Positions 32,383 through 62,560 of a stretch of 64,000 bases of DNA are shown here, one piece after another; position 1 is the stretch's first letter, and each line of letters starts with the position of its first letter. Under the pieces are notes generated by a model. The model ran no database searches, was not told the origin of the DNA, and saw only the letters and a list, made by a program, of their open reading frames with translations. The position numbers and the translations under genes are program-made. The stretch comes from Naegleria gruberi (Eukaryota), in NCBI GenBank assembly GCA_000004985.1, contig GG738882.1, one strand, 5' to 3'.

Positions 32383-34320
32383 GTGGGAAGCATTCCTTCA
32401 ACACCAAGAACAACATTAGCTTCTACTACCAATCAAGTTGCTCATCCGAATGTTGTTGTCTCCTCCTCACCATCAATTCATCATCAACCAATGACAAGTC
32501 AATCGACGACGAATTATTACCATACCGATCATGCACAGTATCATTCATTCAGTAATGAAGTTGGAGTTTCGTCTGCCCTTCCTCCCAAGATGCAACAAAA
32601 GAAGAGACATAACACAACTGCCTCGACAAGTTCTTCCTCATCCTCCTCTTCTAATGAGCATACCACCATATTGGAAATTGCTAGTGGTGAAGCTTTGTCA
32701 TCAACAACTAATGGTATAACACCTGCGACTCCAATTCCAGTCCGACAATATCAGCAACCAACAATTCAACCAATTCTCACAATGAATTCCAACACCATTC
32801 AACCACATCAACAGCAGCAGCAACATGGATACTTTATGAATGGATCCACTCAATCATCATTTGATAATACTCAAATGCAATCTCATCAAGGACACGTCAT
32901 GATAATGATGGACGATGATAAGGGAGAAGCAAAGAAGAGAAAGAGAAGAAATCAAGCCAAATCAGCTTGTGAGCAATGTAGAAGAGCTCACACTGCCTGT
33001 ACTGATCAAAAACCTTGTCTCAGATGTGTCAAGTTAGGATTGCAATGTGTTGAAGCTCCTAAAAAGAAACAAAAACCAAATGGTAAAAGCTCATCTGGCA
33101 ATAACAGTCCTCCTCCAACAAATGTTAATAATACATACAGTACAGATACATCTCCTTATGGTAGTGATTTGAGCAGTTTAGCCACCAGAATTCAAAACAT
33201 TCCCAATATGAATCCAATTGCAAGTGAGCAACATCAACATGAATCAGTAATGAATTCAGCAGGAAAGAGCTCTTCAAGTTCTTCCTCTTCTGATGGTGAC
33301 TACTCTTCTGGAACAACCAACAGTCCAACTCAACAAACAACCTCCTATCCTCCTCAAGTTCCTACCATCCAAACTCCACAACCTTCCTTTGCAATTAATA
33401 GATTAACACCTCTCTCAGTTTCTCAATTCCAAACCTTAATTAAGGAAGGCAATGTAGAAAAGGTGCACCAAGTTTGTGAAATTTCCTATCAACTCATTAC
33501 TATGAGTGTGGATGAAATCAAGACTATCTATCCAGTGCTCGTTCCAGCTGGACAAGAACAGTTAACCTTCAATACCAACAGAAATGGGTTCTTATTGGCC
33601 TATTTGTATGGTAAATTCAATATTATGAACGCCATGAGAGATATTTTGTGGAAGCAATACAGATCAGAATACTTTAGTTTCCTTTTCAAGTTAATTTCAT
33701 TTGATGATGATAAGGCACTCATTAGAATGTATCTTCAAGGTATTCAATATGATTTGAATACTGTTGAAAATGAAAAGAGTATTGGTCTGTTGAGTTTCTG
33801 TGCCTGTTGTGGAAGAATTGAAATTTTCAAATTGCTCTGTGAAGAATTCCAATGCTCCCTTTTCCAAGTGAGAAATGAAAAGTATTTACCAATACACTTT
33901 GCCTGTAGTTACTCAAATGTAGAAATTGCAGAATACATCCTCCAAAAGTATCCAATCCAATTGGATATTCAAGTTAACAATAATAGTTCTCCACTATTGG
34001 TTTCAGCAGCATATGGCAGTCTCAAAAGTATCAAATTTTTAATTGATCGAGGAGCCAATGTAAATTTATGTGACATTGATGGTCTGTATGCTATTCACTA
34101 TGCCGTCAAGTACAATCACTTTGCTGTTGTCCAATATCTAGCTCAACATAATGCTGATTTTTCTGTCAAGAATAACTCTGGTCAAACAATATTTGACTTC
34201 GCGACAGATTCAGACAAGAAGTTTATGCTAGAACTAATTGTACAAAACAAAAACCTTAATGATAGAATTTTATTACAGGAGGATATAATCAAAAACATGA
34301 AACCAACATCATGTAAATAA
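32383..34320 (+). CDS. Zn(II)2Cys6 (GAL4-type) DNA-binding protein with C-terminal ankyrin repeats (645 aa)
   Basis: The binuclear cluster is KSACEQCRRAHTACTDQKPCLRCVKLGLQCVE (C-x2-C-x6-C-x6-C-x2-C-x6-C). Ankyrin units include LLSFCACCGRIEIFKLLCEE...LPIHFACSYSNVEIAEYIL...SPLLVSAAYGSLKSIKFLIDRGANVNLCDIDGLYAIHYAVKYNHFAVVQYLAQHNADFSVKNNSGQT. The N-terminus is S/T/Q-rich. The start codon appears to be GTG in the track, and the first in-frame ATG (MTSQST) lies ~35 codons downstream. Confidence 0.75.
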   Translation: MGSIPSTPRTTLASTTNQVAHPNVVVSSSPSIHHQPMTSQSTTNYYHTDHAQYHSFSNEVGVSSALPPKMQQKKRHNTTASTSSSSSSSSNEHTTILEIASGEALSSTTNGITPATPIPVRQYQQPTIQPILTMNSNTIQPHQQQQQHGYFMNGSTQSSFDNTQMQSHQGHVMIMMDDDKGEAKKRKRRNQAKSACEQCRRAHTACTDQKPCLRCVKLGLQCVEAPKKKQKPNGKSSSGNNSPPPTNVNNTYSTDTSPYGSDLSSLATRIQNIPNMNPIASEQHQHESVMNSAGKSSSSSSSSDGDYSSGTTNSPTQQTTSYPPQVPTIQTPQPSFAINRLTPLSVSQFQTLIKEGNVEKVHQVCEISYQLITMSVDEIKTIYPVLVPAGQEQLTFNTNRNGFLLAYLYGKFNIMNAMRDILWKQYRSEYFSFLFKLISFDDDKALIRMYLQGIQYDLNTVENEKSIGLLSFCACCGRIEIFKLLCEEFQCSLFQVRNEKYLPIHFACSYSNVEIAEYILQKYPIQLDIQVNNNSSPLLVSAAYGSLKSIKFLIDRGANVNLCDIDGLYAIHYAVKYNHFAVVQYLAQHNADFSVKNNSGQTIFDFATDSDKKFMLELIVQNKNLNDRILLQEDIIKNMKPTSCK

Positions 34321-34544: not shown

Positions 34545-36614
34545 ATGAAAACAAGTCGGAGCAGCTCGACCTCATCCAACAATTCTTCTCCCTTCATGGC
34601 TGAAAATCTAATGCCCCACAGTAGTGTAAATTTTGATCAGTCGCCAAATGTTGGATCCTCGAAAACGGGAAGAAAGCGATCGAAATCAAGCTCGAAAAAG
34701 CGGAATGAAGAAATACAACCACTCTTGATGAATGTTGGAAATGAAATGAATAATTTGAAGGATGCTAGGGCTCAGTTTAAATTGACTTGTAGCATGGTTT
34801 TGAATATTCTGATTTTTATTTTCAACATGTTGTTTATGTGTTTATTGACAAGTATTTTGGTTTATGTCGTTTCGCCAGTATATATCAATCATGATGTGCA
34901 TAATTTTGGGATTGGAACGATTGATAGTGCAATACCAAGTATTTCTTCATTTAGAGCAGCTTCAATTGATGGAAATGGAAAGGTTTATCAGGGATTTGGA
35001 ATGGGTTTCTCATACAGTAATACAGAGATGCAATCTCTAAATATTAGTGATGGAAACACTGTTGCAGTATCTTTATTTCCTGCATTTCAATCAATTTTAT
35101 TAGCGAGAGCATTGGTGGCCAATAGAGGTGCCATGAGAAATTCATCGTGGGATGTTACTTTGAATAGTATGGTCTTGAATCAGGGACAATCTCTATTTCA
35201 ACCAGAATTTACTTTTACAATATCTAGAAATCAATCAAAAGGTGATAATGAAACTGTTTGGACTCAATTGGAAGCATTTGTGCATTCGAGTCATTACATG
35301 TACTTTTTCCAGAAGGCCAGAACAGCTACATGTCTTGTTATCATGGAAAGATTTATTAGAAATAGACAAAACATGATGACAGTATCAATTTATGGAATTG
35401 TTGGAACTGCACTAAGCAGTACAAGTCATGTCTATACTGATGGACCATTCTTGATCAATAATTATACATTTATTGATGATGGTTCAGTTAATTATGCTAC
35501 CATCAAGAGATCAATTTCCATGACAGCAGTACAAATCGATGGAACTCATCAGGATTTATTTGTGGTTTCACACAATTTCGAAACAGATACATGCATGTAT
35601 CATTCGATTAAGAGTGCAACAGAAATGAGTTCTAATAATCTTCCATCAGGTGTTTCTTGTTACTCTGTTGATACAACCAATACTCAAATGATTGAAACTC
35701 TACAAGATTCAGTAATTGCTGCCACTGAGAGCCATCTTTTCATTTTAGGTACGGATGGAAAGCTGATTGCCATTGAAGCTGTTCCTTCATGTAGAAAGGG
35801 TTATCAAATTGCTGCCAATAGAAATGCTGATATCACAATTCATGTAAAGTCTCTCTATGTGAGTCAGTTCATTTACTCATGTCACAATTCCAACGATCAA
35901 TCTGTTTCACTCCTCCATGGAAAGTTATTCTCTACGACTGGATCTTTCTATTTCCTTCGTCTTGGTACTGAATTTACCAGTATCTTGCAAGGAGATGTTG
36001 AAAGTTCTTGGTTGACAAGTGCTATAAGAGATTTTAAGTATCACGACATTTCTAAAGAGGCAACAGAGATTCCAATTGAGGAATATCACATTTTCCTTAC
36101 CTATGAACGTAAGGAGGGGCGAAAGAGTGTTCTCTACACTATGAAATGTACATGTCCAACCATTAGTATTAGTACGACAGTGAATGTGGATGATCTGTTC
36201 GAGTTGGATGATTACAGTCCATTTTGCTCAATTCCATTCAAGCATGAATCAATTACAGGCAAGACAATATCATTTGGAGTTTCAGCAGTGAAAAACTTTG
36301 GAATTTTAATTACCAGTTTCTATTATTCTTCAAAATCCACCTTAATTCTATCAACAGAACTTGCTAATTGGCAAGGCGGATACAAATGGATTGGAATTAC
36401 TGTACCCTCATATGAACAAACTTCTTCCAGTTCGGTTAGTGTTGCTCAGAGAGGATTAATTGAAATTCCATCATTTGTGAAGGAATATTTAATTGAAGGA
36501 GCTTCCTATTATGCAAATATTGATGGAACAATTACGAGAAAGAAAACACCTTATTATATTGGATATGCTGTGAACAAGAAGAAGTTAGTAATGGATTCTT
36601 CATTTGTTCAATAA
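34545..36614 (+). CDS. hypothetical type II membrane protein (689 aa)
   Basis: ATG start. The basic S-rich N-terminus is followed by a single TM (ILIFIFNMLFMCLLTSILVYVV). Next comes a ~580-aa Cys-containing domain with many N-x-S/T sites. There is no recognisable domain. Confidence 0.5.
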   Translation: MKTSRSSSTSSNNSSPFMAENLMPHSSVNFDQSPNVGSSKTGRKRSKSSSKKRNEEIQPLLMNVGNEMNNLKDARAQFKLTCSMVLNILIFIFNMLFMCLLTSILVYVVSPVYINHDVHNFGIGTIDSAIPSISSFRAASIDGNGKVYQGFGMGFSYSNTEMQSLNISDGNTVAVSLFPAFQSILLARALVANRGAMRNSSWDVTLNSMVLNQGQSLFQPEFTFTISRNQSKGDNETVWTQLEAFVHSSHYMYFFQKARTATCLVIMERFIRNRQNMMTVSIYGIVGTALSSTSHVYTDGPFLINNYTFIDDGSVNYATIKRSISMTAVQIDGTHQDLFVVSHNFETDTCMYHSIKSATEMSSNNLPSGVSCYSVDTTNTQMIETLQDSVIAATESHLFILGTDGKLIAIEAVPSCRKGYQIAANRNADITIHVKSLYVSQFIYSCHNSNDQSVSLLHGKLFSTTGSFYFLRLGTEFTSILQGDVESSWLTSAIRDFKYHDISKEATEIPIEEYHIFLTYERKEGRKSVLYTMKCTCPTISISTTVNVDDLFELDDYSPFCSIPFKHESITGKTISFGVSAVKNFGILITSFYYSSKSTLILSTELANWQGGYKWIGITVPSYEQTSSSSVSVAQRGLIEIPSFVKEYLIEGASYYANIDGTITRKKTPYYIGYAVNKKKLVMDSSFVQ

Positions 36615-36630: not shown

Positions 36631-39600
36631 TTATTCCAAATTGGCTTGCTTCATCAACTTATTCTTGTAGTTAACAATTCCTTGATAAGTTTCGAATTGT
36701 TGAGTGAAGATAAATCTAGAAAAGGTGTCACTCAAATTGAAAAGAACTTGATTTTGGAGAGTTTCAATTGATTTTCTGATTGACTCTTTCAATTCTTGTG
36801 AAATTTGATTCTTTTTGCCAAAATTCTTTCCATTTTCCAATTCAATATCTTTAGTTTTAGAATCTGTAGAGTCCAGGTCCTGTACAAGATTAACGAATGA
36901 TTTCTTACAATCTGATGGGATGTTAACTTCCTTCAAAGAACCGTTCTTGACATAGGTTTCATAAATATGCAGAATAATTGTTTGAGCTTGGTGAGAATCG
37001 TCCAAGTTTTCAAAAACATTATTCTGATTTTTGATTTCCAAATAAAGTTGTAAATTTTCAAGGGAATACTCCTTTTCGCAGAACCATTCGAACAATTGCA
37101 AACCCTCAGCATGTTCTAATAATTTCACTAACTCTTCTCCTTCATCTTGTTTAGTTTCGTATGAGCTCTTTCTAATCTTGTGAATAAATAGCACAATTAA
37201 AGAATAACCTCCAAATACAAACAAGTAACTGAACAAGTAGAGAATGTCAAAAAGTAATGAAATAGAATCATTCAATAGTAACATTTTCAAAGAGTCTGTC
37301 TTTCGATAAGTCAATCCTGATAGGCCAATAATTTGTGAAATAACCAAAAAGGTAAAACACATTACAAACAAACACATCTCAGCTCTGAAATATAATGGAG
37401 AATCCAATCTAATAATATTTTCATAAACCCCTTTCAGTGGAATCTTTACAAGTTTCTTTGCAGTTGTAAAATTATCGAATTTCTGCAGTTTTTCCAAACT
37501 TTTACCAGTAAGTAAATCATTCAAAGAGAAATTGAGCTTCCTTGTTTCATTATCTGTTGTTTGTTCTTGACCTTGTTTGATAATTTCGTTTTCCTTTCTC
37601 TTGGAGAGGAAGACCATAATCCAATCCAATGCAATCATACAACAAATAATGAATCCTAGAAGGAGAATCGAACAAGTAAACGAAATGGAAACAATATGAG
37701 TATACGTAGTGCCTGTAATGGCTCCAGTACGAATGAGAATAACCCACAGAGTCCAATACAATACATTCAATGTTACAAATACTGACATTACAATAAGCAT
37801 TACCTTGGTTGAAAGGAATAGTTTTGTAACCTTGAGAAGTGTTTCACTCTTTGGTTCTTTAGAATTAAACCTCAACCATATTTGATGATGAAAATATTTC
37901 AATACTTGGAATCTTAAAACTTGATACAAGTAGGAAAAGATTGCAGTGAGTGTAATGGTGTTTACAATAATTGTAAAAATATTCGAAATGATATTAGCAG
38001 CCAAATCTCCATTTTGTAATTGAAGAACTGTAGATTGACTATTTTCAAAATCATTTTGATTTCCAAGAACACTATTAGCATATCTCAGTAGAATACCTCT
38101 CTGAGTTATAAGTAAAAGTGCACATTCAATGATAAGAGCTGCCATTCCAATAAAAGGAGTTACAAATCTGCTAGTGACAGGTTGAGATTTTCTGAAAACA
38201 ATCAACAGTACTAAAGTAATCGATGATAGAATCAAGAATAAAGAGCCGAATGAAATTTGAGCAATGTAGAGTGAAGAAACTTGTTTAAGGAATTCTGCAT
38301 TTGTTGGAGTTTCTTGTTCTACAAATGCTGCAAAGAGAGTTGTGTGATTACATTGACAAGTTAATTGCTTGGTTTGATTGTTGAAATAATAAACTGAACA
38401 TCCTTCTCTTTCCCATTTGTGATTTGTTTCGTTCCAAAATTGGCAGCTTAATGAAGTGTTAGAAACTGAAGAGTTTGTTTCTAATGTAAAGCTAATGTAG
38501 ATTGGTTCAATTAAGTTGGACAATGATAACGGAGAACCAGATTTGTATAATGTGAATTCTTTTGAATTAGTCAATTGTGTTGAATTACCATTTGTGTACA
38601 AATTCTCATCAAAGGTTATGAGAGCCAATCCAATTTCCTTATAGTATCCATCGTATTTGGCAAGAATATAATCTGTATCTATTGTAACTCCATTAAATTC
38701 CTGAACAACATTGTCAATAGATGAAGTTTTCAAAAAAGTGGAAGTTGTAATGTTGATCAAGTCGGATATGTATGAATTCTGATCGAGAGATCCTGAAAAT
38801 ACTCTTGATGCTTGTTGGTTAATAATAATGGAAGATAATTGGGAACAAAGAGTTGTCACATTAACAAATCCGTTCAATAAAATATTGCTGGCAGATGACA
38901 AGGTATTTTTCAAATCGCTTTCTGACATTCTTTGTTTAGAGAGATAACCATTGGAAGACTTATCACTTTTGATTATTTCATTTACCGAGCCCAAGAAATT
39001 CTCCAATTTGGAACTAAGGATAGAAGCTACTTTGTTTTCTAATGAATTTGTTGTTGTCAACTGGTTAATAACTTCCAAAGTAAGTGAAGGATTTTCAACA
39101 TGGAGGTTAAGACTGTTCACATATTCGTATATTATTTCATTTGATTGTTTTCTTGATTGATCGTATGGAAGGATAACCGACAATCTCTCATCGTGTCTTA
39201 TTCTATACTGTAAGGTTTCTGCATCTTCAGAGTTGAGAAGAACTTGGACTGAACCAAAATATTTTGAATATTGATTGGAGAGACTGTCTCTTGCAATGAC
39301 ATATATTTGAACAGTGGCAGACTCAGTTTTGTTATTAGACAAATAAGGAAGGTAGCATGAACAAGTAAGATTCTTTGAAAACTCATTCATTCGAATAACA
39401 ATGTTTTCCCCATGTACATTCGAATATTCAAAACCAAATGCAAACTCTAACGGGGAAAGCTCGTATGGTACAATCCAGTTGTTCAAATCTTCTTCAAAGT
39501 TGAAAAGCGTTGAAAGGGCCATTCCTGTTTGAGGTAAAATATTAACATTAGAATGTAATCTTTCAGGAGGAGACAATATTGGAATGCTTTCTAAAAATTC

Positions 39601-42600
39601 AACTGTTTCAGAGAGATTTTGAGAATTATAAAATTTCACACTCAGTGTCAAGTTTCCTTGACCGTTATTATGAAAACTTCCTTTTAGAGAAAGAACTGGA
39701 CTAAACGAAAGTTTGTACAAACCATTAGTAGATCTTCCAATAAAACTGGCAAGTATATACTCTGGTGGTTGCGAATAAATTTTTTGATTTCCATCACTAA
39801 TCTGCCATGAATATTTCAAATTCGTCCAAGTACAATTTGTACAATTATTAGAAAGTCTAATGGATTCAAAATCATTAATATATTCTAAATATGCACCAAT
39901 GATGTTCATATCTATAACTTGGTTCAATCCTTTGACAACAGCTTTTGGTTTACCAATTATTTCTATTAATCTCTTTTCCTTTACAATTTTTTCCTTACAA
40001 TTCGCTCCAAAATAATCTGGTTTACAAGCACACGTGTTAGGATAAATGCAACTACCTTGTCCTGAACAAACTAAAGATGAATTTGTATAAATCACTCCAA
40101 AGCAATGGAAGAGGTCACAATTAATTCCAGTAAATCCTTCATTACATATACAGGTATCGGTGATATTGCAGTTTCCATGCCCAGAACAAACATTAGAATT
40201 ATTGAAAAGGACTCCATTACAATAAAATGTTTCACAATCCAATCCATCATATCCAATCTTACATGTACAGGAATTAGGAGAAGTACAAGTGCCAAATCCA
40301 GAACAAACACTTGTAGAATTATGCAATTGAGCATTACAATAAAAAGTCTCACAATTATCCCCGAAATAACCATCCTTACATTGACAAATATTTGGCAAAG
40401 TGCAATTTCCGTTTCCTGAACAAACCATTGAAGAATTGTGATTCACATTATTGCAGGAATAGTTTTCACATTCGTTTCCGCTATATCCAGAACTACAGAT
40501 GCAATTATTAGGAGAAGAGCAATAGCCATGTGATGAGCATACTTTGGAGGAATTATTCAATAGACCACTACAATTATAACTTTCACAATTATTACCAAAA
40601 TATCCATTCAAACAAGAGCAATTGTTTGGAGCAGTACAGTTTCCATTTCTAGAACAAACATCTGTGGAATTGTGCATCTTGTCACCACAAAAGTACGTTT
40701 CACAATTATTTCCATAATATCCTGTTTGACATGAAGAACAAATATTTGGAGATTGACATACTCCTCGTCCACTACAAACCTTTGTTGAATTGTTTTGAAT
40801 TCCAAAACAATCCCATACACTGCAATCTGATGAATAGTAGTTAGAAGAGCAAGAGCATTGATTTCCAGCAATACATACACCATGCCCTGAACAAACATTA
40901 GTTGAGTTGGTTGCATTAATTCCAAAACAAATTGGAACCTGACATAACGCACCTGTATATAGTGGAGAACACTGACAGTTGTCTATTCCTACACACGTAC
41001 CATGTCCAGAACAAACAATTGATGAGTTAGATAAGATTCCATTACATTTAGGATATTGACATCTCTCTCCTCCATATCCATTAACACATGAACACTGATT
41101 TACACCAATACATGTCCCTTTACCACTACAAACGTTAGATTCCCCTTGAAGAATACCATAACATTTGGGTTTCTCACAGTTTACGCCTCCCCACGAGCTG
41201 CTATCAGTGCATTGGCAAGTGTTAGGAGACTGACATGTACCTCTGCTATTACAAACAGTTCCATCTGTAGAAATAATGTTATTACATTTTGGAAATTGAC
41301 ATAGGTTACCTCCCCAATTATTTTGATCGTTACAATTGCAATTTTCAATGGAACTACATATTCCTCTTGAGTTACAAACAAGCGGATCACCCTTAAAATA
41401 AGATCCACATTTAGGATTTTCACAAAATTGACCTGAATAATTTGGATCGCAAATACAAACATTTGGGGCCGTACAGACACCATTTCTATTACAAACATTT
41501 GCGTCGCTGGCTGCTATACTATTACATTTTGGAAATTGGCAGAAGACTCCAGTATAATTTGTATTGCATGCACATGAACCCACACCAACACATGTTCCAT
41601 TTGCACTACAAACTTTGGGATCAGTTGACAGTATGTTGTCACACTTTGGATATTGACAATCTGATCCTCCCCAATTGTTTGGTACATTACATGTGCAAGA
41701 ATCTGGTGCTGAGCAAACACCTCTACTATTACATACACCAGCATTACCTTGTAAAACTCCATTACATTTTGGTTTTTCACAATTTTGACCTCCCCATGCT
41801 GCTGGACTTGTACACTGACACGAGTCAACTGCTGAACAAAGACCTCTTCCATTACAAACATTGGATTCTCCCTGAAGAATTCCAGAACATTTTGGTTTTT
41901 CACAATTAGCTCCTCCCCAACTTGTTGGTTCATCACATTGGCACTGATTGTTTCCAATACATTTGCCTCTACCTGAGCAAACTGTTGCAAAGTTAATACT
42001 CTCAATACCATTACAAAAGCTTGTAAAACACTGTGTGCCATTACTGTTCAGGTTGTAACCATTATCGCAAGTTGGCATTAAAACACGAATCTTATTCGTA
42101 CCTCTCTCTGCAAATATAATTTGTCCAGTAGTTTCATTCACAAACAAACCAGCAGGAAGTGAAAGAGGACTCAAATGTGAAATTGACCCATCATCTGCAA
42201 GGGCTTGTATTCCATTACCAGCAATGGTTGAAATGATTCCATTCTTCACTCTTCTAATTCTATTGTTTTCGTGATCTGATATATAAATTACTTCATCTTG
42301 AGTAACATAGACAAATACTGGATCTTGCAGCATGGAAGATTTTGCAGCAACATTATCTGGTCCAAATCCTAAGGTTCCATTTCCTGCAACAGTTGAAATC
42401 TTTCCGTCTGGTTGAATCATTCTTATTCGATGATTCTTCTTATCGACAATGTAGATCTTATCATTTCTAACGAAAACACCATGGGGTTCATTTAACTGAG
42501 CTGTACTTGCTTGAATTCCATCTCCATTATAATTAGCCGTTCCAGTACCTGCAATAGTGGTAACAGTTCCTGACTCGACCTTTTTAACTTTGTGATTATA

Positions 42601-43176
42601 AAAGTCAGCAATATAATATAAGCCAGTGTAAGGTACAAAGATAGCTGGTGGATGGTCTAGTTGAGTTACTCCTGTGGCTCCTATAGCATCTCCACAACCA
42701 GGAACCCCAACACTTGTTGCAATGATATTAGAACTCACCATACGAATTTTACAGTTATATTGATCTGCAATATAAATGATATTGTCCATAACAAAGACAC
42801 CATATGGATAGTATAGTTTGGCAGAGGTAGCTAACTGTCCATCTCCTGTAGAACCTTGTTGACCAACCTTGCCAGCAATAATGGTAACATCACCATTAGC
42901 ACTTCTTTTCTGGACAATATTATTGTACTGATCCACAAAGTAAATCTCATTGTTGTACATGTGCAGGCCACCAGGTTTTTGTAAATTACTAACGAGAGTT
43001 TGGATTGTATATTTGATAGGCGATTCGGCTTGTTTAGAATATCCACCCCACAAGAACAAAATCACCAGAACAATTATTGGCAGGCATCTGTTTGGAAGAG
43101 GTGTCATACTATTTTTTTTGTTGAGATTCGTTTTGTTTATGCACTTCACCACTTGGACTGTTAAGTCCATTCTCAT
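36631..43176 (-). CDS. adhesion-GPCR-like giant protein (2181 aa, single exon): signal/anchor, NHL repeats, ~20 EGF-like Cys repeats, spacer, GPS-like motif, 7TM, C-terminal RGS domain
   Basis: The NHL repeats (~plus 42070..43000) include YFVDQYNNIVQKR, IYIADQYNCKIRMV, YYIADFYNHKVKKV, IYIVDKKNHRIRMI, IYISDHENNRIRRV. The EGF-like units (~40150..42070) follow the pattern PKC.G.L.....VC.SRG.C..P..C.C....W.G..C. The GPS-like motif (~38330..38450) is CQFWNETNHKWEREGCSVYYFNNQTKQLTCQCNHTTLFAAF. Seven helices lie at ~37180..38290. The RGS domain (~36690..37130) starts with LQLFEWFCEKEYSLENLQLYLEI and ends with LSDTFSRFIFTQQFETY. Confidence 0.8.
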   Translation of the reverse strand: MRMDLTVQVVKCINKTNLNKKNSMTPLPNRCLPIIVLVILFLWGGYSKQAESPIKYTIQTLVSNLQKPGGLHMYNNEIYFVDQYNNIVQKRSANGDVTIIAGKVGQQGSTGDGQLATSAKLYYPYGVFVMDNIIYIADQYNCKIRMVSSNIIATSVGVPGCGDAIGATGVTQLDHPPAIFVPYTGLYYIADFYNHKVKKVESGTVTTIAGTGTANYNGDGIQASTAQLNEPHGVFVRNDKIYIVDKKNHRIRMIQPDGKISTVAGNGTLGFGPDNVAAKSSMLQDPVFVYVTQDEVIYISDHENNRIRRVKNGIISTIAGNGIQALADDGSISHLSPLSLPAGLFVNETTGQIIFAERGTNKIRVLMPTCDNGYNLNSNGTQCFTSFCNGIESINFATVCSGRGKCIGNNQCQCDEPTSWGGANCEKPKCSGILQGESNVCNGRGLCSAVDSCQCTSPAAWGGQNCEKPKCNGVLQGNAGVCNSRGVCSAPDSCTCNVPNNWGGSDCQYPKCDNILSTDPKVCSANGTCVGVGSCACNTNYTGVFCQFPKCNSIAASDANVCNRNGVCTAPNVCICDPNYSGQFCENPKCGSYFKGDPLVCNSRGICSSIENCNCNDQNNWGGNLCQFPKCNNIISTDGTVCNSRGTCQSPNTCQCTDSSSWGGVNCEKPKCYGILQGESNVCSGKGTCIGVNQCSCVNGYGGERCQYPKCNGILSNSSIVCSGHGTCVGIDNCQCSPLYTGALCQVPICFGINATNSTNVCSGHGVCIAGNQCSCSSNYYSSDCSVWDCFGIQNNSTKVCSGRGVCQSPNICSSCQTGYYGNNCETYFCGDKMHNSTDVCSRNGNCTAPNNCSCLNGYFGNNCESYNCSGLLNNSSKVCSSHGYCSSPNNCICSSGYSGNECENYSCNNVNHNSSMVCSGNGNCTLPNICQCKDGYFGDNCETFYCNAQLHNSTSVCSGFGTCTSPNSCTCKIGYDGLDCETFYCNGVLFNNSNVCSGHGNCNITDTCICNEGFTGINCDLFHCFGVIYTNSSLVCSGQGSCIYPNTCACKPDYFGANCKEKIVKEKRLIEIIGKPKAVVKGLNQVIDMNIIGAYLEYINDFESIRLSNNCTNCTWTNLKYSWQISDGNQKIYSQPPEYILASFIGRSTNGLYKLSFSPVLSLKGSFHNNGQGNLTLSVKFYNSQNLSETVEFLESIPILSPPERLHSNVNILPQTGMALSTLFNFEEDLNNWIVPYELSPLEFAFGFEYSNVHGENIVIRMNEFSKNLTCSCYLPYLSNNKTESATVQIYVIARDSLSNQYSKYFGSVQVLLNSEDAETLQYRIRHDERLSVILPYDQSRKQSNEIIYEYVNSLNLHVENPSLTLEVINQLTTTNSLENKVASILSSKLENFLGSVNEIIKSDKSSNGYLSKQRMSESDLKNTLSSASNILLNGFVNVTTLCSQLSSIIINQQASRVFSGSLDQNSYISDLINITTSTFLKTSSIDNVVQEFNGVTIDTDYILAKYDGYYKEIGLALITFDENLYTNGNSTQLTNSKEFTLYKSGSPLSLSNLIEPIYISFTLETNSSVSNTSLSCQFWNETNHKWEREGCSVYYFNNQTKQLTCQCNHTTLFAAFVEQETPTNAEFLKQVSSLYIAQISFGSLFLILSSITLVLLIVFRKSQPVTSRFVTPFIGMAALIIECALLLITQRGILLRYANSVLGNQNDFENSQSTVLQLQNGDLAANIISNIFTIIVNTITLTAIFSYLYQVLRFQVLKYFHHQIWLRFNSKEPKSETLLKVTKLFLSTKVMLIVMSVFVTLNVLYWTLWVILIRTGAITGTTYTHIVSISFTCSILLLGFIICCMIALDWIMVFLSKRKENEIIKQGQEQTTDNETRKLNFSLNDLLTGKSLEKLQKFDNFTTAKKLVKIPLKGVYENIIRLDSPLYFRAEMCLFVMCFTFLVISQIIGLSGLTYRKTDSLKMLLLNDSISLLFDILYLFSYLFVFGGYSLIVLFIHKIRKSSYETKQDEGEELVKLLEHAEGLQLFEWFCEKEYSLENLQLYLEIKNQNNVFENLDDSHQAQTIILHIYETYVKNGSLKEVNIPSDCKKSFVNLVQDLDSTDSKTKDIELENGKNFGKKNQISQELKESIRKSIETLQNQVLFNLSDTFSRFIFTQQFETYQGIVNYKNKLMKQANLE

Positions 43177-43743: not shown

Positions 43744-46700
43744 ATGTATTCGCATCCACATCATCAGTTATCTTCAACACCAAATAACACGATTGGACAA
43801 CAAACATCACCATCAGTAAATCATCATCAGCAACTTTCAAGTCCACACTATCATCAGCAACAACAACCAAACAATGTTTATCAACAACAACAACATAATA
43901 GTACTGTAATAGCGAGCTTTAATGATGCGTCTGGTGTTGCTTTTAATGGAAATAATATTAATGGTGGCAGTAGTCATAATAATATGCCAATAGGTGGTGG
44001 TCATGGAACTAGTTTGATGACTCAATTACTATCTAACAACAATAATAATAACAACAACAATCAATCGCCATCCATGATGCAACAACAACATATTCAACAT
44101 AATTTTGCAAATAATAATAATCAAACAACACAACAACATCAATTGATGGCTAATAATAACATGAACCAACACCATAATGGAAGTTTGAGTAGTAACAGTG
44201 GTTCTCCGAATATCCATAGTTCCTCGTATAATAATAACAATTATATGAATCATCCAAATTTTGTATTGAATTCAACTCCTTCACCCGATAATAATATGTA
44301 TTCTCAGCAACAACAACAAATGTATCATAATACACAATTGTCAAATAATAATTATCAAAATAGTCAACAACCAATGATGATGAACCGAGCATCTCCTAAT
44401 CAACAACAACAACAAATTAATAATACTAGTGTAATGGATAATAACCACCAACCATGGAATCAATCTTCGGGAGGTGGTATTTGGAATCAATTCGTGATGA
44501 ATAATTCTAATCAACAAGTAACTGCACAAAGAAATTATAATCAAGCACCAACTATGGTCCAACAACATCAACAAATGGATAATATGAACTACAGTTATGT
44601 AAATAATTCAAACCCCCAAAATAGTGCATTACTCAGTCAGTTATTAAATAATAATAATACCATGATGAACCAGAATCCAACAGATGTGACAATAGATTCA
44701 TTGAATTATGCAACATCATCTGCAGTCGATGAACAGGATGACGGAGCAGAAGCTCAGTTTCACCCAATTGCATGTTTGAATTGCAGGAAAATACATAAAA
44801 GGTACGTACAAGTCAAATAACCTATTTCTAATTTTAATAGATGGTAAGTGATTGAAATTAGTTCAGTAATAATTTAGATTTTTAATGAAAATTAGTGGTA
44901 AGTAATATTATTCGAATAATTAAAATTCTAAATGACTGCATTCTTAGATAAGAAATTACCTTTCTGTACCAGATGTACAACTAAAGGATTGAATTGTGAA
45001 TATAAGGAACCATTCTTTAAAAAGGCTGCGGAGAAGAAGGAAAAGAAAAGGAGGAAGAAAAAAGGTGACATTATTACTATGTTCAATGTTGGAGATGAAA
45101 ATGAAGTGGCAGCCAATGCTATTAAATCTATCAAACAGAACACAATTGAAACCTATTGCAGCATTGTTTGTATGGGTAATCCACCATTTGATCAAGAGGT
45201 ATGTTTGAAATCTAATAATCAAATAATTTATAACCTTTCACTAGGCATTAGAGAAGTTATTACTTGTTGGACCACAAGAGTTGCTTAGTCGTCGTGACGT
45301 TTTATCATTTCTCTTGTCTATTCAATCTCTGTGTGAATTAAAGTTTGGATATCCTGATTTGGCAGAGGAAACAATGATCAAGGCAAGAAACAGTTTGTCA
45401 CATCATTTCGATGATTATGAAAATCCTTTCGTTGTTTGCACATATTCCCATCTTGCATTCTTCTATGCAGCCGAAGGAAAAACCAAACAAGCAAGAGGAT
45501 ATCTCAGTTTTGTAAATCATTACATGAGTGATTGGAAACAAGGTCATACTGCAGAAGAATCTCCACATGGAGAAATGAATGGAACTTTATATAGAGTTAG
45601 TATTTCGAGATTGAATTGGTTGTGTCTCATAACAGAACTAATTTCAACAGAGACCCATCCTGTCCCTAACATCTCCACTATTGAAAAACTCTCCTTGGAC
45701 ATGCTTGGACTTGCAATGCCAGAAGAATGGAAAGTTTATCTCACATATTATCAATTAACTGATAGTAAGAATGTGGACGAAAGATTGAAAACTTTGGAAT
45801 TATTTGGATCACTCCTGCACTTTGCAATGGGCCCTCAAAATAATTCTGTCTTTGCAACAAGATTGCACAGTCTCAACAATATCATTTGTATTAATGGGAT
45901 TAGAGCTACAGTGTTACTTCTATCTGGATGTAATGTTGGTGCCTTACATGGGGTTGATACTGCAGGATCAGATAAGGTGATAGCAGAGCACATTAATTTA
46001 TTGGAATATGCTGCTCTAGCTATTAGTAAGACGACTGAAGAAGAGTTCTTCCCATTCATTTCACCATACTTAATTTCCTTCTTTTTGGTCGCAGTTAAGG
46101 TTAATTTGGAAATTTGTAAAATGATAGAAAGAGGAGAACGTGAAAATTATCGTCCTTGTCCTAAAATTGTAAATAGAGAAGTGAAATTGGATGGCATTGA
46201 TTTAGACCAATATTATACAGTTGTAGATTATTATAGTGTTGTAGCAAAAGACTTGCGTGGATTGCATGTACTGAGGAAACGATATCGTTACATTGCTAAA
46301 TATGTTACAGACTTGGAAGAATTTCTAGCAAAGAGGTCTACCCAATCTTTGGAATCTATTGCCAATTTTGCCAATTCTTCTATCATTCCTGATTTGAGAA
46401 TCAACCAACCTTTGACAAACACCAATAAGAGTGAAAGAATTGGAACTTTTTATAGTGAAATGAGGAAATTCATGTTGACTTTTAACAAGGGATTAGGTGA
46501 AGCTCTCTTGGGTCAACCAAGAAAAAGTGGAACAGGTGGTGACAATTTATTCTCCCATCCAGCTCTTTCTATGGTAATGAATGGGTCAATCAAACCTGGA
46601 AATGTTAACGAGTTATCAATGTACGTCTCTGAAATATCCAAGAACGTTCAAGAGCAAGCAGATGCCTTACGAGATTTGAGCACGCCTAGTTCTATTGATG

Positions 46701-53032: not shown

Positions 53033-56000
53033 GTGAAAGGCATTACAATTCCATCCACAAACAAAATGTCCAACAATATCCTTGTTAATTTGCTTGTGTT
53101 AACTTTTTGCTTGTGTTTTGTTGCGTTTGCCAGCTTTTCCAATGCAGCTGCTGTGAAATATAAGATTACAACGGTACTTAGTTCTCTCGAAACACCGAAA
53201 TCTATTCACGTACTAACAAGTGGTGATATTTATTTTGGTGAATATAACACAATATCAAGTAGAGTTAAAAAGTGAGTATTTGATCTTTAAAACTTGACTT
53301 ACTTTCGAAGACTGTCTTCAGGTTCAACAACAACAATTGTTGGTGGTGGAACAACAACCACTGATGGAGCTTCTCTTACAGACGCATTATTGAGTAAGTT
53401 TTTTTAGATTGGTCAACCAAACTAATTCTTCACAATAGCTGGATTATATTTTTGCTTTGACGAAACCAACAACAAAATGTACATTAGTGACGAAGGCTTA
53501 CATAAAATAAGACTGGCCGATCTTGGAAATAATAATATTAACACATTAACCAGTAATTCCTACAGTCCAACATTTATAACATTAGATAGTGTAAACAGTA
53601 GAGTGCTATTCACTGATCCTGAAGATTATAGTGTTCGTTATTTCAGCTTATCATCTCCATCAACCGTAACACCTGTCAGTGCTTCGACAAATACTGTTTC
53701 TGGTATCACAGTTTCGACAGCTGGAGAATATTATTTCGCAGATGGATCCAGCAAAGTCATAAAACTTACTTTACCAAATACGAAAAGTAATTATGTAACT
53801 GGATTGAGTAATCCTCAAGGATTATTTTGGAGATCTAATGAACTGTTCATTGTAGATGCTGATAGTACAACTCCTAAAATTAAGAAGTATGATGGAACAA
53901 CTCTTACAGATATTGCTGGAGGTGGATCTTCTGGTTGTGCGAATGATATTGAGGCAACAAGTTGCAAATTATCAAGCTCCATCTCAGGTATTTACGTCAC
54001 CAACAAGAATGAAATTTACATCACTGAAGCCAGAAGTTCACCTAATGGAAATATCAAGAAAATTTATCCATATTGTGATAGTGGTTATCAATTATCTTCT
54101 GATGGAAAAACATGTGATCCTATTTGTTATTCTAAAGTAGGAGANNNNNNNNNNNNNNNNNNNNNNNNNNNNNNNNNNNNNNNNNNNNNNNNNNGGCTTA
54201 TCTGGTCCAACAGGAATATTCTACACAACGTATAATGAAATATTCATTTCTGATTCTGGAAATAAGAAGATCAAGAAATATGAAGGGGGATCAACCTCAG
54301 ATTTTGCTGGTGCCAGTGGAGCTGGGACTACTTGTGCAGAAGACTCAGAAGCTCTCTCTTGCTATTTTTCAACTAGTATTTATGGTATTTTCGTTACTGA
54401 CAAGAATGAAGTTTATGTAACTGAAGGAATATCCGACACTGGAACTGTTAAGAAAATTTATCCATACTGTGATAGTGGTTATCAATTAACATCTGATGGA
54501 AGATCATGTGTTCCTATTTGTTATTCCAAAGTAGGGGATGCTGCCTGTGGAGGACCAACTCAAGGAGCTTGTAGTGCTCCTGATACTTGTCAATGTACCA
54601 CCAATTATTTTGGAAACGAATGTGGCTCACCAAAGTGTTATGGAAAAACATCCAATGCCTGTAATAATCAAGGTACCTGCACTGCAGTCGATACTTGTGT
54701 TTGCAATGCTAACTATTTTGGAAATGAGTGCACTTCACCAAAGTGTTATGGAAAAACCTCCAACGCTTGTAACAATCAAGGTACTTGTACTGCAGTCGAC
54801 ACTTGTGTTTGTAATGCCAACTATTATGGAAACGAATGTACTTCTCCAAAGTGTTATGGAAAAACATCCAATGCCTGTAACAATCAAGGTACTTGCACTG
54901 CAGTCGACACTTGTGTTTGCAATGCTAATTACTACGGAAATGAGTGCACTTCCCCAAAGTGTTATGGAAAAACATCCACAACAGCTTGTAACTTGAAAGG
55001 TACCTGCACAGCAGTTGACTCTTGTCAATGTAATACCAATTACTATGGAAATGAATGTACAGTCACAACTTGTGATGGCAAGTATTCCAATACTTCAGTT
55101 GCTTGTAACAACCAAGGAACTTGTGCTGATTATAATACTTGCAATTGTAATACTAATTATGGAGGTTCTTATTGCAGTCTTCCAAAATGTGGTGGAATTC
55201 TGTCAGATAATCCATCCGTCTGTTCAGCAAATGGCACCTGTGCTGGTGTTAATAATTGTCAATGTAATTCTCTCTATACAGGATCCAATTGTGAAACTCC
55301 TATTTGTTATGGAATTCAAGCCACTCAAACATCAACTGTGTGCTCTGGACAAGGTATTTGTGTGGCTGGTGACAAGTGTGTTTGTAAAGATTATTCCAAA
55401 TATACTGGACTAAAGTGTGATTCTCCAATTTGTAACTCAAAACCTTCAACAGATCCAAATGTTTGTAACTCTAGAGGTACATGTACTGCACCAAATACTT
55501 GCCAATGTACTGATACTAATCTATTTGGTGGAAATGATTGTGAACTATTCAAGTGTAATGGTACACTCTCCAATCAAGGATCAGTTTGTAGTGGAAGAGG
55601 TACATGTTTAGCCAATAATATTTGTCAATGTACTGATACTAGCTCTTGGGGAGGAAATTTTTGTTCAATTCCTAAATGTAATGGAATTCTTGCCAATGAC
55701 ACTAGAAAATGTTCATCTAGAGGTAATTGTATTTCACCAAACACTTGCCAATGTTATGAGAGTAATAATTATGGTGGATCAGATTGTGAAATTTTCAAAT
55801 GTGGTGGAATCCTTTCTACTAATACTTCTAAAGTTTGTTCTGGAAAGGGTACTTGTAAATCATTGAATAACTGTGAATGTTTACCTAATTATGGTGGTGC
55901 TAATTGTGAACTTGTTAAATGTTTTGGCATTTTACAAAACGAAAGTTCAGTATGTAGTGGAAAAGGTTCATGTAAGAATGTTGATACATGTCAATGTGAT

Positions 56001-57656
56001 AATGGTTATGGAGGTTCTAATTGTAATCTTATTAGATGTTTTGGTGTCTATACTAACCAAACTAATTTGATTTGTAATAATGGAAATGGTACTTGTATTG
56101 CTCCTGACACTTGTTCATGCAGTACTGGGTGGACAGGATCAAAGTGTGATGTTGCAATTTGTAATGGAAAACTTTCTAATGACACACGTGTCTGTTCATC
56201 AAAAGGTCAATGTGTGGGTCCAAACAATTGTAAATGTTCCACCAATTACTATGGAACAAACTGTGAAAAGACAACTTGTAATTCTGTTGCTTCAGATGAT
56301 AGCACAGTTTGTTTTGGTCATGGTTCTTGCCTTTCGTATAATAATTGTAATTGCTCAACTGGATATGGACCTTCCACAACTTGTGAATTCCCAATTTGTT
56401 ATGGATTATTGGCAAATGACAGCCGTGTCTGTAATGATACTGACAAGTTTTGTTTTGCACCAAATGATTGTAAGCCAAAGAATCCAACTTGTTATGGAAT
56501 TGAAAAGGCAGACAGTAGATCATGTTCTGGACACGGAATTTGTTTATCAACTGATAATTGTCGATGTGATTCTAGCTACTTTGGTGAACAATGTCAATAT
56601 TTCAAATGTTATGGTGTTGAATTCAACTCATCATCAGTCTGTAGCTCACACGGTTCATGTGACAGTGTAAATAATTGTAATTGTCGAGATGGTTACGGAG
56701 GAAACAATTGTGAACTTGTTAAATGTAGTGGAATTTTACAAAATTCAAGCATGGTTTGTAGTGGAAGAGGTAAATGTGTTGATGTTAACACATGTAATTG
56801 TGACAGTGGATATTATGGCTCTGATTGTCAATTGACCACCTGTTTTGGTATTGAACAAGCAAGCTCACAAGTTTGTAACAATAGAAATGGTACTTGTCTT
56901 TCGTTTGATAATTGTAACTGTCTTGATGAAAGCAAGTGGTTCGGATCAGCATGTAATACGACGTATTGTTATGGGAAAACTTCATTGGATTCTAATGCCT
57001 GTAACTCTCAAGGTAATTGTGTCAATTTTAACACATGCCAATGTAAACAAAATTATGCTGGCAATCAATGTCACTTGAGATACCTTTCTCAATCATTCAC
57101 CTTATCATTCAATAGCACTACTGATTTTATTGGAGAAATTTCCACCATACTCACCCTCAGCATTCAAGATTCCACATTCCTCGATTTTTATGCCAACAAA
57201 TCTGTCGACATTAAGTTGGAATTCCTTCTTGACAATCAAGCTCTCACTTCAGCAATATCTTCCCAACAATCACTATATCCAAGCATGTCTTTCTCTCTCC
57301 CATCCTCTCTCTCCAAAGGATCACTCACAGCAAAGGCAACTCTCTACAATTCCACAACACCAATCTCATTCCAAGTTGCAACCGAAAGTGCCTTAATACT
57401 CCAACAACGAAACACTCCAATTGCCTCAAACTCTATTCCATCTCGTGCTGGAGAACCATCAATTCAAGGAAATAGTAATGCAGGAGTTATTGCTGCAGCT
57501 GTGGTCGTTCCAATCGTTTCAATTGCAGCCATTGGAGGTGGTGTTGCTGTGGTCATTACTGTTGTGGTCTTGTTGAAGAAGAAGGCAGCTGCTACTTTGG
57601 CCAAGGATATTGCAACAGCTGCTCACACTGATGTTGAATTGGCAGGTAATCTTTAA
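53033..57656 (+). CDS. type I membrane protein: signal peptide, NHL repeats, ~28 EGF-like Cys repeats, TM, short tail; exons ~53033..53271, ~53311..53393, ~53439..54144, [50-N gap], 54195..57656
   Basis: The signal peptide is NILVNLLVLTFCLCFVAFASFSNA. The 39-nt and 45-nt introns give ...SSRVK|K|LSSGSTTTIVGGGTTTTDGASLTDALL|T|GLYFCFDETNNKMYISDEGL. NHL-like units recur (IYITEARSS, VYVTEGISD). The EGF-like pattern C.G....S..C.SRG.C..P..C.C....YGG..C runs from ~54540 to ~57060. The TM is GVIAAAVVVPIVSIAAIGGGVAVVITVVVLL and the tail ends AGNL-TAA. The frame is continuous from 54195. The track begins its ORF at a TTG at 54993 only because no start-like codon occurs in the repeats. Confidence 0.7.
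54145..54194. other. assembly gap (50 N) inside the NHL/EGF gene
   Basis: A run of n characters. The coding frame differs on the two sides, which is expected for an arbitrary-length gap. Confidence 0.99.
54628..55059 (+). repeat. four tandem 108-bp (36-codon) repeats encoding the EGF-like module SPKCYGKTSNACNNQGTCTAVDTCVCNANY(F/Y)GNECT
   Basis: Copies start at ~54628, 54736, 54844 and 54952. The first three are ~90-95% identical at the nucleotide level, with almost all differences at synonymous third positions. The fourth copy is diverged. Confidence 0.85.
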
Positions 57657-60800: not shown

Positions 60801-61766
60801 NNNNNNNNNNNNNNNNNNNNNNNNNNNNNNNNNNNNNNNNNNNNNNNNNNNNNNNNNNNNNNNNNNNNNNNNNNNNNNNNNNNNNNNNNNNNNNNNNNNN
60901 NNNNNNNNNNNNNNNNNNNNNNNNNNNNNNNNNNNNNNNNNNNNNNNNNNNNNNNNNNNNNNNNNNNNNNNNNNNNNNNNNNNNNNNNNNNNNNNNNNNN
61001 NNNNNNNNNNNNNNNNNNNNNNNNNNNNNNNNNNNNNNNNNNNNNNNNNNNNNNNNNNNNNNNNNNNNNNNNNNNNNNNNNNNNNNNNNNNNNNNNNNNN
61101 NNNNNNNNNNNNNNNNNNNNNNNNNNNNNNNNNNNNNNNNNNNNNNNNNNNNNNNNNNNNNNNNNNNNNNNNNNNNNNNNNNNNNNNNNNNNNNNNNNNN
61201 NNNNNNNNNNNNNNNNNNNNNNNNNNNNNNNNNNNNNNNNNNNNNNNNNNNNNNNNNNNNNNNNNNNNNNNNNNNNNNNNNNNNNNNNNNNNNNNNNNNN
61301 NNNNNNNNNNNNNNNNNNNNNNNNNNNNNNNNNNNNNNNNNNNNNNNNNNNNNNNNNNNNNNNNNNNNNNNNNNNNNNNNNNNNNNNNNNNNNNNNNNNN
61401 NNNNNNNNNNNNNNNNNNNNNNNNNNNNNNNNNNNNNNNNNNNNNNNNNNNNNNNNNNNNNNNNNNNNNNNNNNNNNNNNNNNNNNNNNNNNNNNNNNNN
61501 NNNNNNNNNNNNNNNNNNNNNNNNNNNNNNNNNNNNNNNNNNNNNNNNNNNNNNNNNNNNNNNNNNNNNNNNNNNNNNNNNNNNNNNNNNNNNNNNNNNN
61601 NNNNNNNNNNNNNNNNNNNNNNNNNNNNNNNNNNNNNNNNNNNNNNNNNNNNNNNNNNNNNNNNNNNNNNNNNNNNNNNNNNNNNNNNNNNNNNNNNNNN
61701 NNNNNNNNNNNNNNNNNNNNNNNNNNNNNNNNNNNNNNNNNNNNNNNNNNNNNNNNNNNNNNNNNN
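57806..61766. other. assembly gap (3961 N)
   Basis: A run of n characters. The two 1350-aa 'ORFs' of X residues across it are artefacts. Confidence 0.99.
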
Positions 61767-62560
61767 GTAATGACAGATATTTAAAGGTCAGGTCAGTACT
61801 AACTTTTGAATTATGGACTTTGAGAAGTCAAATGTTTGGGACGTGAATCTACTCATTGGATTGAACAGGTATTGCTAATAAAGGAACATTTCATTGATTT
61901 ATTGATTATAACGGTCAAATTGAGTTGAATGTAAGTGAATCTAATGTTGATTGATCGTGGATGGGTAGTTTCGCCACGAAGTGGTGCAACTACCAACCTT
62001 TGTAGATTGAATCAGGTTGTTTTGCATGCAATATGAATAAGCAACATTATCAAGAGTGATTATTCACCAATTCAATGATCAATATTCAATAATCGGTTTG
62101 ATTTCAATCAATAGCTTGATCATCAAGCTTTGAATTAATATTCCAGTAATTAACGGCAGTCTATTTTTAAATTTAATCAAAGACCATATATAGTATCTAG
62201 ACTTTTATGATCTGGAAACTATCTAGATGTGTTCTATATTGAATAATCTATTTGAAAATGAGATGAATTAACTCTTCTATTGAGTTTTATTGGTATTGCA
62301 AGGTATTACGATTATAATAATCTACACAGAAATCACTCTTCAAATATAAACTGTACTACAATGTATGAGAAACATAACGGCGGTGGAATTAATCAATAAA
62401 TAATTGAAATGACTGAGATGGAATGTAAACTATGGTCTATTTGTCATGAAATGGTGACTAGACAGTGTCAATTTCATCAAATTATTTCAAACTGATTACA
62501 TTCAATAAAAAACCGTTCTATACATCAAACATGTCATACAGAATGAGTTTCAATATTTAA

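Follow-up and report, generated by a model that had tools for sequence, protein, structure and literature searches.

NAEGRDRAFT_80558 of Naegleria gruberi: a 7TM RGS protein with a GAIN domain in front of a seven-helix bundle that is not 7tm_2

The DNA analysed here, hereafter the window, is a stretch of 64,000 nucleotides of contig GG738882.1 from the Naegleria gruberi assembly GCA_000004985.1. On its minus strand, at positions 36631-43176, it holds one open reading frame (ORF) of 2181 codons with a single stop at its end, as seen both in the ORF listing and in a fresh translation. In an exhaustive HMMER search this ORF was a 100%-identical match to NAEGRDRAFT_80558 (XP_002674832.1 = EFC42088.1 = UniProt D2VML7), a protein of 2158 residues that is listed as 'uncharacterized protein'. 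All domains that an initial annotation, made from the letters of the DNA, had listed for this ORF are present in one chain and in the order given there: a secreted N-terminus, NHL repeats, an array of EGF repeats, a spacer, a GPS motif, seven transmembrane (TM) helices and an RGS domain. NAEGRDRAFT_80558 is a member of the seven-transmembrane (7TM) RGS class already published for Naegleria, and the lineage-specific expansion of this class has likewise been published. What is new here, as far as comparison of sequence and fold can tell, is that the 7TM part is not of the 7tm_2 class, that the same 7TM is found in proteins devoid of a large ectodomain, and that the element HT/TxFxxF[ILV] (the slash marks the predicted cleavage site) is nearly invariant. 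The gene has been public in annotation since 2010 and the architecture in the literature since 2022, so the value of the present analysis is refinement rather than discovery.

XP_002674832.1 is identical to the ORF from Met24 through the C-terminus. Therefore the public gene model is also single-exon and the start codon is the sole difference; residue numbers refer to the 2181-residue ORF throughout. With a G+C content of the window of about 33%, a stop-free frame of 2181 codons is far beyond chance expectation. Translation revealed no N runs, internal stops or frameshifts within 36631-43176. The uninterrupted 6.5-kb reading frame is present exactly as first described, and it stays open between the 7TM part and the RGS domain, with neither a stop nor a frameshift at this junction. 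The amoebozoan setting assumed in the initial annotation had to be given up, although the G+C content of 33% and neighbours rich in poly-N/Q had made a dictyostelid or amoebozoan source worth considering. Two neighbouring ORFs are exact matches to the N. gruberi proteins XP_002674745.1 and XP_002674826.1, as the target itself is to its own entry, and N. gruberi is a heterolobosean (Discoba). The proposed comparison with the cAR/crl receptors of amoebozoans was thus aimed at the wrong clade. We found no paper on the N. gruberi gene NAEGRDRAFT_80558 itself.

The features of the protein are compiled in Table 1. Its ectodomain comprises about 1,600 residues and carries 36 N-glycosylation sequons. 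The start at Met24 turns the hydrophobic stretch MTPLPNRCLPIIVLVILFLWGG into an N-terminal signal peptide of classical type, and hydropathy agrees with the secreted or anchored N-terminus that had been proposed. The NHL region, for which five or more repeats had been expected, also matched the NCBIfam ScyF NHL model (E 1.5e-12), and six blade units are readable by eye. The EGF array is real (Pfam EGF_2, E 3.6e-47; EGF_TEN and EGF_Teneurin also match), but the number of its repeats is slightly below the approximately 20 of the first estimate. The spacer had no Pfam match even at E 10, and Pfam detected neither REJ nor PLAT in the protein.

Table 1. Features of the NAEGRDRAFT_80558 reading frame, with their positions in the window
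Feature	Residues	Position	Strand	Basis
Whole ORF, 2181 codons plus stop		36631..43176	-	annotated coding sequence starts at Met24, nt 43107
Probable signal peptide, MTPLPNRCLPIIVLVILFLWGGYSKQAES	24-50	43027..43107	-	hydropathy peak 23-50 and annotated start Met24; putative cleavage
Six-bladed NHL beta-propeller	52-368	42073..43023	-	Pfam NHL, 52.2 bits
17 tenascin/teneurin-type EGF repeats, period 39-41 residues	370-1066 (or 388-1060)	39979..42069	-	Pfam
Spacer of about 250 residues, rich in N-glycosylation sites	1067-1318	39223..39978	-	no Pfam match
GAIN domain, subdomain A (helical) and subdomain B (beta-sandwich)	1319-1455 and 1466-1622	38311..39222	-	AlphaFold2, Foldseek, profile
GPS motif: C1578, W1581, W1588, C1593, C1607, C1609, HTT	1578-1620	38317..38445	-	Pfam GPS
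Predicted autoproteolysis triad H1611-T1612/T1613, followed by the Stachel-like strand TLFAAFV		38338..38346	-	translation
Stachel-like strand peptide, TLFAAFVEQETP
Seven-helix membrane domain	1627-2006	37159..38298	-	hydropathy, AlphaFold2
RGS domain, with an insert of about 30 residues between helices	2012-2178	36643..37143	-	Pfam, profile, Foldseek

Directly before TM1 lies a GAIN domain with both subdomains, as in adhesion G-protein-coupled receptors (GPCRs). Residues 1319-2181 were modelled with AlphaFold2 from an 18-sequence alignment (mean predicted local distance difference test, pLDDT, 75; predicted TM-score, pTM, 0.55). In this model the GAIN region starts with some seven bundled helices and goes on into a beta-sandwich. 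Foldseek aligned it to the GAIN domain of BAI3 (4dlo) with an E-value of 2e-8 over 298 columns and also to the structures of BAI2, ADGRG6 and GPR56, the matches as a whole ranging from E 2e-8 to 3e-4 over about 300 columns (E 2e-8 to 2e-6 for BAI3, BAI2 and ADGRG6). About 280 positions of the family profile aligned with ADGRG6, ADGRL3 and ADGRF1 (E 4e-11 to 4e-10). GAIN abuts TM1 in all known GAIN proteins, and Araç et al. (2012) found the domain in the non-animal eukaryotes Dictyostelium and Tetrahymena (PMC3321182).

The GPS sequence, CQFWNETNHKWEREGCSVYYFNNQTKQLTCQCNHTTLFAAFVE, scored 35.6 bits with the Pfam GPS model when searched as a segment alone (cutoff 22.5) and 31.9 bits within the C-terminal 863 residues; it was not listed in the scan of the whole protein. 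The segment also found ADGRF1 in the PDB (phmmer, E 3e-5), and 16 of 18 relatives passed the Pfam GPS model. What had been described as a GPS-like motif keeps the Cys/Trp spacing CxxW...W...GC...CxCxHTT and may be called a GPS on the strength of its Pfam score.

Conservation continues beyond the motif. When 65 family members were compared, Thr was found at position -1 in 62 and at position +1 in all of them; Phe occupied +3 and +6 in 64 members each, and Ile, Leu or Val occupied +7 in 58. The sequence element HT/TxFxxF[ILV] is nearly invariant across the family. The pattern by which the members were selected imposed only C.C.H.[ST].[hydrophobic]. Since it forced so little, most of this conservation is genuine.

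GPS motifs were also met on other outputs in proteins from outside the animals. P0105 from Planoprotostelium (PRP85648.1) is an LRR-GPS-1TM-protein kinase, P0123 combines a GPS with a kinase, and P0120 has the composition REJ-PKD-EGF-GPS. Protists appear to combine the GAIN/GPS module freely with different signalling tails.

Behind the GPS, hydropathy delineated seven hydrophobic segments spanning residues 1637-2000. An AlphaFold2 model of the 7TM part alone (38-sequence alignment) likewise has seven helices, with a pLDDT of 84.5 and a pTM of 0.83. Two approaches thus bear out the predicted number of helices, and the modelled bundle has the fold of a GPCR. The third intracellular loop is long (about 1874-1925), a conserved DxPLxFRxE motif precedes TM6, and an invariant Arg, R1755, is located at the cytoplasmic end of TM3.

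The class of this helix bundle is a different matter. The initial annotation had labelled the protein adhesion-GPCR-like. This label fits the ectodomain and the GAIN/GPS region but not the 7TM part, which by Pfam, by profile-profile comparison and by fold is not the secretin-like 7TM (7tm_2, PF00002) of class B2, the adhesion GPCRs. The isolated 7TM matched no Pfam 7TM model (7tm_2, Dicty_CAR, Frizzled and others) at E-values up to 10, nor did 18 family members at E-values up to 1. Against adhesion GPCRs in the PDB, the family profile aligned over GAIN/GPS and into TM1 but no further. With GPS and RGS removed, a 65-sequence profile of the 7TM gave nothing in hhalign against three 7tm_2 domains (probability 0.2%); the references were P0113, which is Pfam-confirmed, and P0153 and P0095, which are similar to the 7TM of P0113 by phmmer. 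In Foldseek searches with the 7TM, the best E-value was 0.08 and the matches were a mixture of GPCR classes. No paper on the class of the NAEGRDRAFT_80558 7TM was found in the literature.

The same 7TM was found outside the adhesion-type proteins. A hidden Markov model (HMM) built from the 7TM only covered all seven helices of 7TM-RGS proteins that have no GPS. One of them, P0094 (490 residues), has an RGS domain and lacks a GPS and a large ectodomain; it was matched with an E-value of 3e-77. Four others (P0125, P0132, P0148 and P0112; 430-500 residues), which have short glycosylated N-termini, were matched with E-values of 1e-9 to 4e-24. Therefore the 7TM-RGS unit exists on its own. From these comparisons NAEGRDRAFT_80558 is best viewed as a 7TM-RGS core with an acquired GAIN/adhesion front and not as an animal-type adhesion GPCR with an RGS tail.

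For one of these minimal proteins, P0132 (446 residues, without GPS), the gene was located (L001, 1389-3670; GCA_016850925.1, contig JAESGV010001034.1). It adjoins a convergent G-alpha gene on the opposite strand, which was called in two pieces. This neighbourhood hints that a 7TM-RGS gene may be linked to the gene of a Gα that is possibly its substrate.

TM7 ends at about residues 2006-2009 and the first RGS helix begins at 2012, i. e. about three to six residues later; the RGS domain does follow TM7 almost directly, much as had been stated. The Pfam RGS model scored 35.8-39.8 bits (cutoff 23.9) over residues 2017-2162, a match that begins about 10 residues behind the TM7 helix. The family profile matched RGS5, RGS3, RGS10 and RGS16 with E-values of 6e-13 to 4e-12, and in Foldseek the RGS model reached target-normalised TM-scores of 0.74-0.82 with RGS8 and RGS16.

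Alignments with RGS5 and RGS4 pair EYSLEN (2036-2041) with EFSEEN/EYSEEN and KEVNIPS (2082-2088) with KEVNLDS, and a motif comparison equates NLSDTFSRF (2147-2155) with NLMEKDSYRRF. By alignment, S2038, E2040, N2041 and N2085 correspond to S85, E87, N88 and N128 of RGS4; D2150 and R2154 correspond to D163 and R167 by motif comparison only. The numbering of the RGS4 sequence in this alignment agrees with the published contact residues. In an alignment of 18 members with 21-40% identity, E2036, E2040, N2041, N2085, N2147, T2151 and R2154 are invariant and D2150 is nearly so. The aligned residues make the RGS surface look like that of a catalytic RGS box with its Gα-contact residues intact.

At least 65 cluster representatives share the GPS-7TM-RGS core. 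They come from N. gruberi, N. fowleri, N. lovaniensis, Willaertia magna and metagenomes. With a threshold of E ≤ 1e-3 the exhaustive search collected 395 cluster representatives; the stricter E ≤ 1e-30 left 61. Most of them spanned the entire GPS-7TM-RGS query. NAEGRDRAFT_80558 combines seven TM helices and a subsequent RGS domain in one chain, and its homology to the Naegleria family extends across both parts. In phmmer, matches to proteins from N. gruberi, N. lovaniensis and N. fowleri covered the full length of the query (1-681) and had E-values of 1e-100 to 0. Paralogues in N. gruberi are D2V3Y0 (73% identity), D2V6B6, D2VUN4, D2V8G1, D2VR63 and D2V971; in N. fowleri the homologue FDP41_005437 (P0012/P0155) is 42% identical over GPS-7TM-RGS. 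The ectodomains differ among the members, with EGF arrays in some and REJ in two of the 18 that were scanned. Paralogues of the GAIN, 7TM or RGS segments were not found by tblastn within the window. A word-indexed homologue search gave no match for residues 1061-2181, one N. lovaniensis protein for 1576-2181 and three proteins for a minimal 7TM-RGS alignment. The homology statements rest on the exhaustive search of representatives, because the word index evidently lacks most Naegleria proteins.

The initial annotation regarded the combination of domains as an unusual chimera. Yet this class had already been described for N. fowleri. Bosch et al. (J Biol Chem 2022) reported 28 7TM proteins with a C-terminal RGS domain in this species, several of them with GPS motifs and several with EGF-like repeats and lectin domains, next to 79 further RGS proteins (PMC9283941). 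The RGS domains of Nf 7TM RGS2, 3 and 4 act as GTPase-activating proteins (GAPs) on Gα2, 3, 5 and 7, and those of RGS2 and RGS4 bind Gα2 and/or Gα3 directly. Nf Gα5 and Gα7 are self-activating; some Naegleria Gα have an ordinary, rate-limiting nucleotide exchange and would need a guanine nucleotide exchange factor (GEF) (PMC9283941). Beyond Naegleria, de Mendoza et al. (2014) found 7TM-RGS proteins across bikonts, chytrids and other groups (PMC3971589).

The window was also said to contain two other receptor-RGS genes. Both fit the known Naegleria RGS expansion, but they are of a two-TM sensor type and are not 7TM receptors. NAEGRDRAFT_70170 (15465-17228, minus strand; 587 residues) is hydrophobic in two places, at residues 67-104 and 268-305, and its C-terminus carries the RGS motif KQELSLENY; the Pfam RGS score of 23.7 bits falls slightly short of the cutoff. 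The ORF at 4144-6186 (minus strand) has two TM segments around a weak CHASE4 match (E 1e-4, below the cutoff), followed by HAMP. An RGS-encoding frame at 3732-4140 (minus strand; with FCESEFSAENF and KDTFVRF) starts just past the stop of this ORF in another frame and is probably joined to it across a short intron, so that 3732-6186 probably encodes an RGS domain attached to a two-TM sensor of bacterial style. The membrane parts of these two genes are unrelated to the receptor 7TM.

Several further ORFs of the window deserve mention. Convergent with the receptor gene is an ORF of 689 residues (34545-36614, plus strand); the two stops are 16 bases apart, leaving almost no intergenic space. Pfam gave no match for it, and it contains one or two hydrophobic segments. 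An 887-residue ORF (54993-57656, plus strand) carries a tenascin/teneurin-type EGF array (EGF_2, E 5.5e-52) and ends about 150 bases upstream of a 3.96-kb assembly gap (57806-61766); it could be another large EGF receptor. A fungal-type Zn(2)-Cys(6) cluster and ankyrin repeats share one ORF at 32383-34320 (plus strand). The Q/N-rich ORF at 43744-44820 (plus strand) ends in the Cys-rich sequence CLNCRKIHKR; possibly another Zn-cluster begins here and is broken up by an intron. Nearly all of a 254-residue ORF at 14155-14919 (minus strand) is made up of DUF4116 repeats, in seven stretches (E 7e-110). Near the end of the window, at 62534-62900, simple repeats of di- and hexanucleotides, which translate as GL/VW/FG or TQ/KP/NP runs, adjoin short assembly gaps; N runs are located at 54145-54194 and 62794-62843.

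Among known systems the N. fowleri 7TM RGS proteins (1-4 and 24 others) are closest. They belong to the same genus and have the same layout of EGF-like repeats, GPS, 7TM and C-terminal RGS. RGS domains of that class, from N. fowleri, are proven GAPs for Naegleria Gα. The ectodomain of NAEGRDRAFT_80558 has an NHL propeller, while the N. fowleri paper mentions lectin domains. AtRGS1 and other plant and protist 7TM-RGS proteins likewise have seven TM helices followed by a cytoplasmic RGS domain in one chain, and by analogy the proposed logic, a receptor-controlled GAP acting on a self-activating Gα, may be shared. Unlike NAEGRDRAFT_80558, AtRGS1 has essentially no ectodomain and no GAIN/GPS; the N. 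gruberi RGS domain keeps the classical SxEN and EVN motifs.

With metazoan adhesion GPCRs (ADGRL3, ADGRG6, ADGRF1, BAI3) the protein shares a large modular ectodomain and a complete GAIN domain abutting TM1, together with two disulfide-forming Cys pairs, two Trp, the H-X-T triad and a TxFxx-hydrophobic-hydrophobic strand. It differs from them in that the residue at -1 is Thr and not Leu, that the 7TM is not 7tm_2, and that an RGS domain forms the C-terminus. We know of no animal adhesion GPCR with a C-terminal RGS domain. The class C orphans GPR158 and GPR179 also place an RGS GAP at the membrane by means of a seven-helix receptor (GPR158/GPR179-RGS7-Gβ5), but they recruit it in trans and have no GAIN domain; the likeness is one of the general GPCR fold at 8% identity and is no evidence of common descent.

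Polycystin-1 and PKD-REJ proteins resemble NAEGRDRAFT_80558 in having GAIN/GPS directly before the first TM helix, and REJ occurs in the two relatives mentioned above and in P0120. The polycystin layout, i. e. REJ, eleven TM helices and PLAT after TM1, is not that of NAEGRDRAFT_80558, which has seven helices rather than eleven, no detected PLAT or REJ, and an RGS output rather than a channel partner. Teneurins share the matches to EGF_TEN, EGF_Teneurin and NHL. They are, however, type II proteins in which EGF, NHL, a YD shell and a toxin-like C-terminus follow each other; here the order is reversed (NHL, then EGF), the topology is type I with a signal peptide, and no matches to YD or Tox-GHH were found.

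Taking these comparisons together with the models and the analogy to AtRGS1, we consider it fairly probable that NAEGRDRAFT_80558 is a type-I seven-pass surface receptor of the heterolobosean 7TM RGS family whose RGS domain works as a membrane-tethered GAP under control of the GAIN domain. The logic of a receptor-tethered GAP is reasonable. Some Naegleria Gα load GTP without a receptor, and the RGS domain would hold nearby Gα in the GDP state. Binding to the ectodomain, or pull on it, would then reach the helix bundle through the GAIN domain and the TxFxxF[ILV] strand buried in it, possibly following self-cleavage at T1612/T1613. The RGS domain would change in position, in accessibility or in its residence at the surface, and the brake on Gα would be released or tightened. 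This regulation is proposed by analogy with AtRGS1, in which ligand-induced removal of the 7TM-RGS protein de-represses Gα (PMC8584482, PMC9283941).

Some points weigh against this interpretation. Cleavage requires the canonical GPS motif H-X-S/T, to which H1611-T1612/T1613 conforms, but the motif does not suffice for it (PMC13062082). TxFxxF[ILV] could be conserved solely because it forms the last GAIN beta-strand. With the pTM of the full model at 0.55, the relative placement of the domains is uncertain. As regards the acquired front, the direction of change could be either way, i. e. a 7TM-RGS core could have gained the GAIN domain or the GAIN domain could have been lost from such a protein.

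Alternatively, NAEGRDRAFT_80558 could be a true G-protein-activating receptor. The 7TM part would act as exchange factor upon exposure of the Stachel, and the fused RGS domain would be a built-in terminator that sharpens the kinetics and would not itself be the main output. The invariant R1755 at the cytoplasmic end of TM3 and the long third intracellular loop are what one might expect of such a receptor, H-X-T plus TxFxxF[ILV] parallels the tethered agonist of adhesion GPCRs, and those Naegleria Gα with rate-limiting exchange would need a GEF (PMC9283941). However, none of the GPCR classes for which GEF activity has been demonstrated is related to the 7TM in sequence, and AtRGS1, the best-studied 7TM-RGS protein, is regarded as a GAP and not as a GEF (PMC9283941, PMC8584482). 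GEF and GAP in one chain would moreover be futile unless they were gated separately. We regard this explanation as unlikely.

It is quite improbable, in our estimation, that the protein is primarily an adhesion or matrix-binding molecule in which the RGS domain binds Gα as an anchor or scaffold but has no regulated GAP activity, and in which the GPS is purely structural and is not cleaved. The ectodomain, with its NHL propeller, 17 EGF repeats and numerous sequons, does dominate the protein; some RGS domains are non-catalytic scaffolds (PMC3971589), and several adhesion GPCRs with an intact H-X-S/T stay uncleaved (PMC13062082). Yet the whole family keeps every residue with which catalytic R4-type RGS boxes contact Gα, the RGS domains of the N. 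fowleri relatives are active GAPs (PMC9283941), and a near-invariant HTT in 65 divergent members argues for selection on a catalytic triad. An artefact of assembly or annotation that fused an EGF/NHL adhesion gene to a separate 7TM-RGS gene, which the gaps elsewhere in the window (54145-54194, 57806-61766, 62794-62843) and the existence of free-standing GPS-less 7TM-RGS genes might suggest, is effectively excluded, because the order ectodomain-GAIN-7TM-RGS is seen again in dozens of homologues whose genomes, from four species, were assembled independently, GAIN always directly abuts TM1 as in known GAIN proteins (PMC3321182), and the ORF has neither N runs nor a stop or frameshift.

The GAP interpretation can be carried one step further, to a tentative idea that we ourselves hold to be rather doubtful. 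The GAIN domain with its tethered strand might not be bound to class B; in Heterolobosea it might have been coupled to an unrelated, lineage-specific bundle of GPCR fold with a fused GAP output. Force or ligand would then withdraw the RGS brake from a self-activating Gα, a logic inverted in sign and independent of, or predating, animal adhesion GPCRs. For research on adhesion GPCRs the family amounts to a natural experiment, i. e. a conserved GAIN domain on a bundle without class B signature that ends in a GAP. This arrangement, together with the near-invariant HT/T and Stachel-like strand, makes a GAP controlled by a tethered strand directly testable. If cleavage or the Stachel-like strand does control the RGS domain, tethered-agonist signalling would predate the class B 7TM and be more portable than it, and Naegleria would offer a tractable single-cell model for input sensing by 7TM-RGS proteins, a question also posed by AtRGS1 of plants. 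For Naegleria itself, the family may underlie the sensing of contact with substrate or prey, and it offers a candidate target on the surface of the pathogen N. fowleri.

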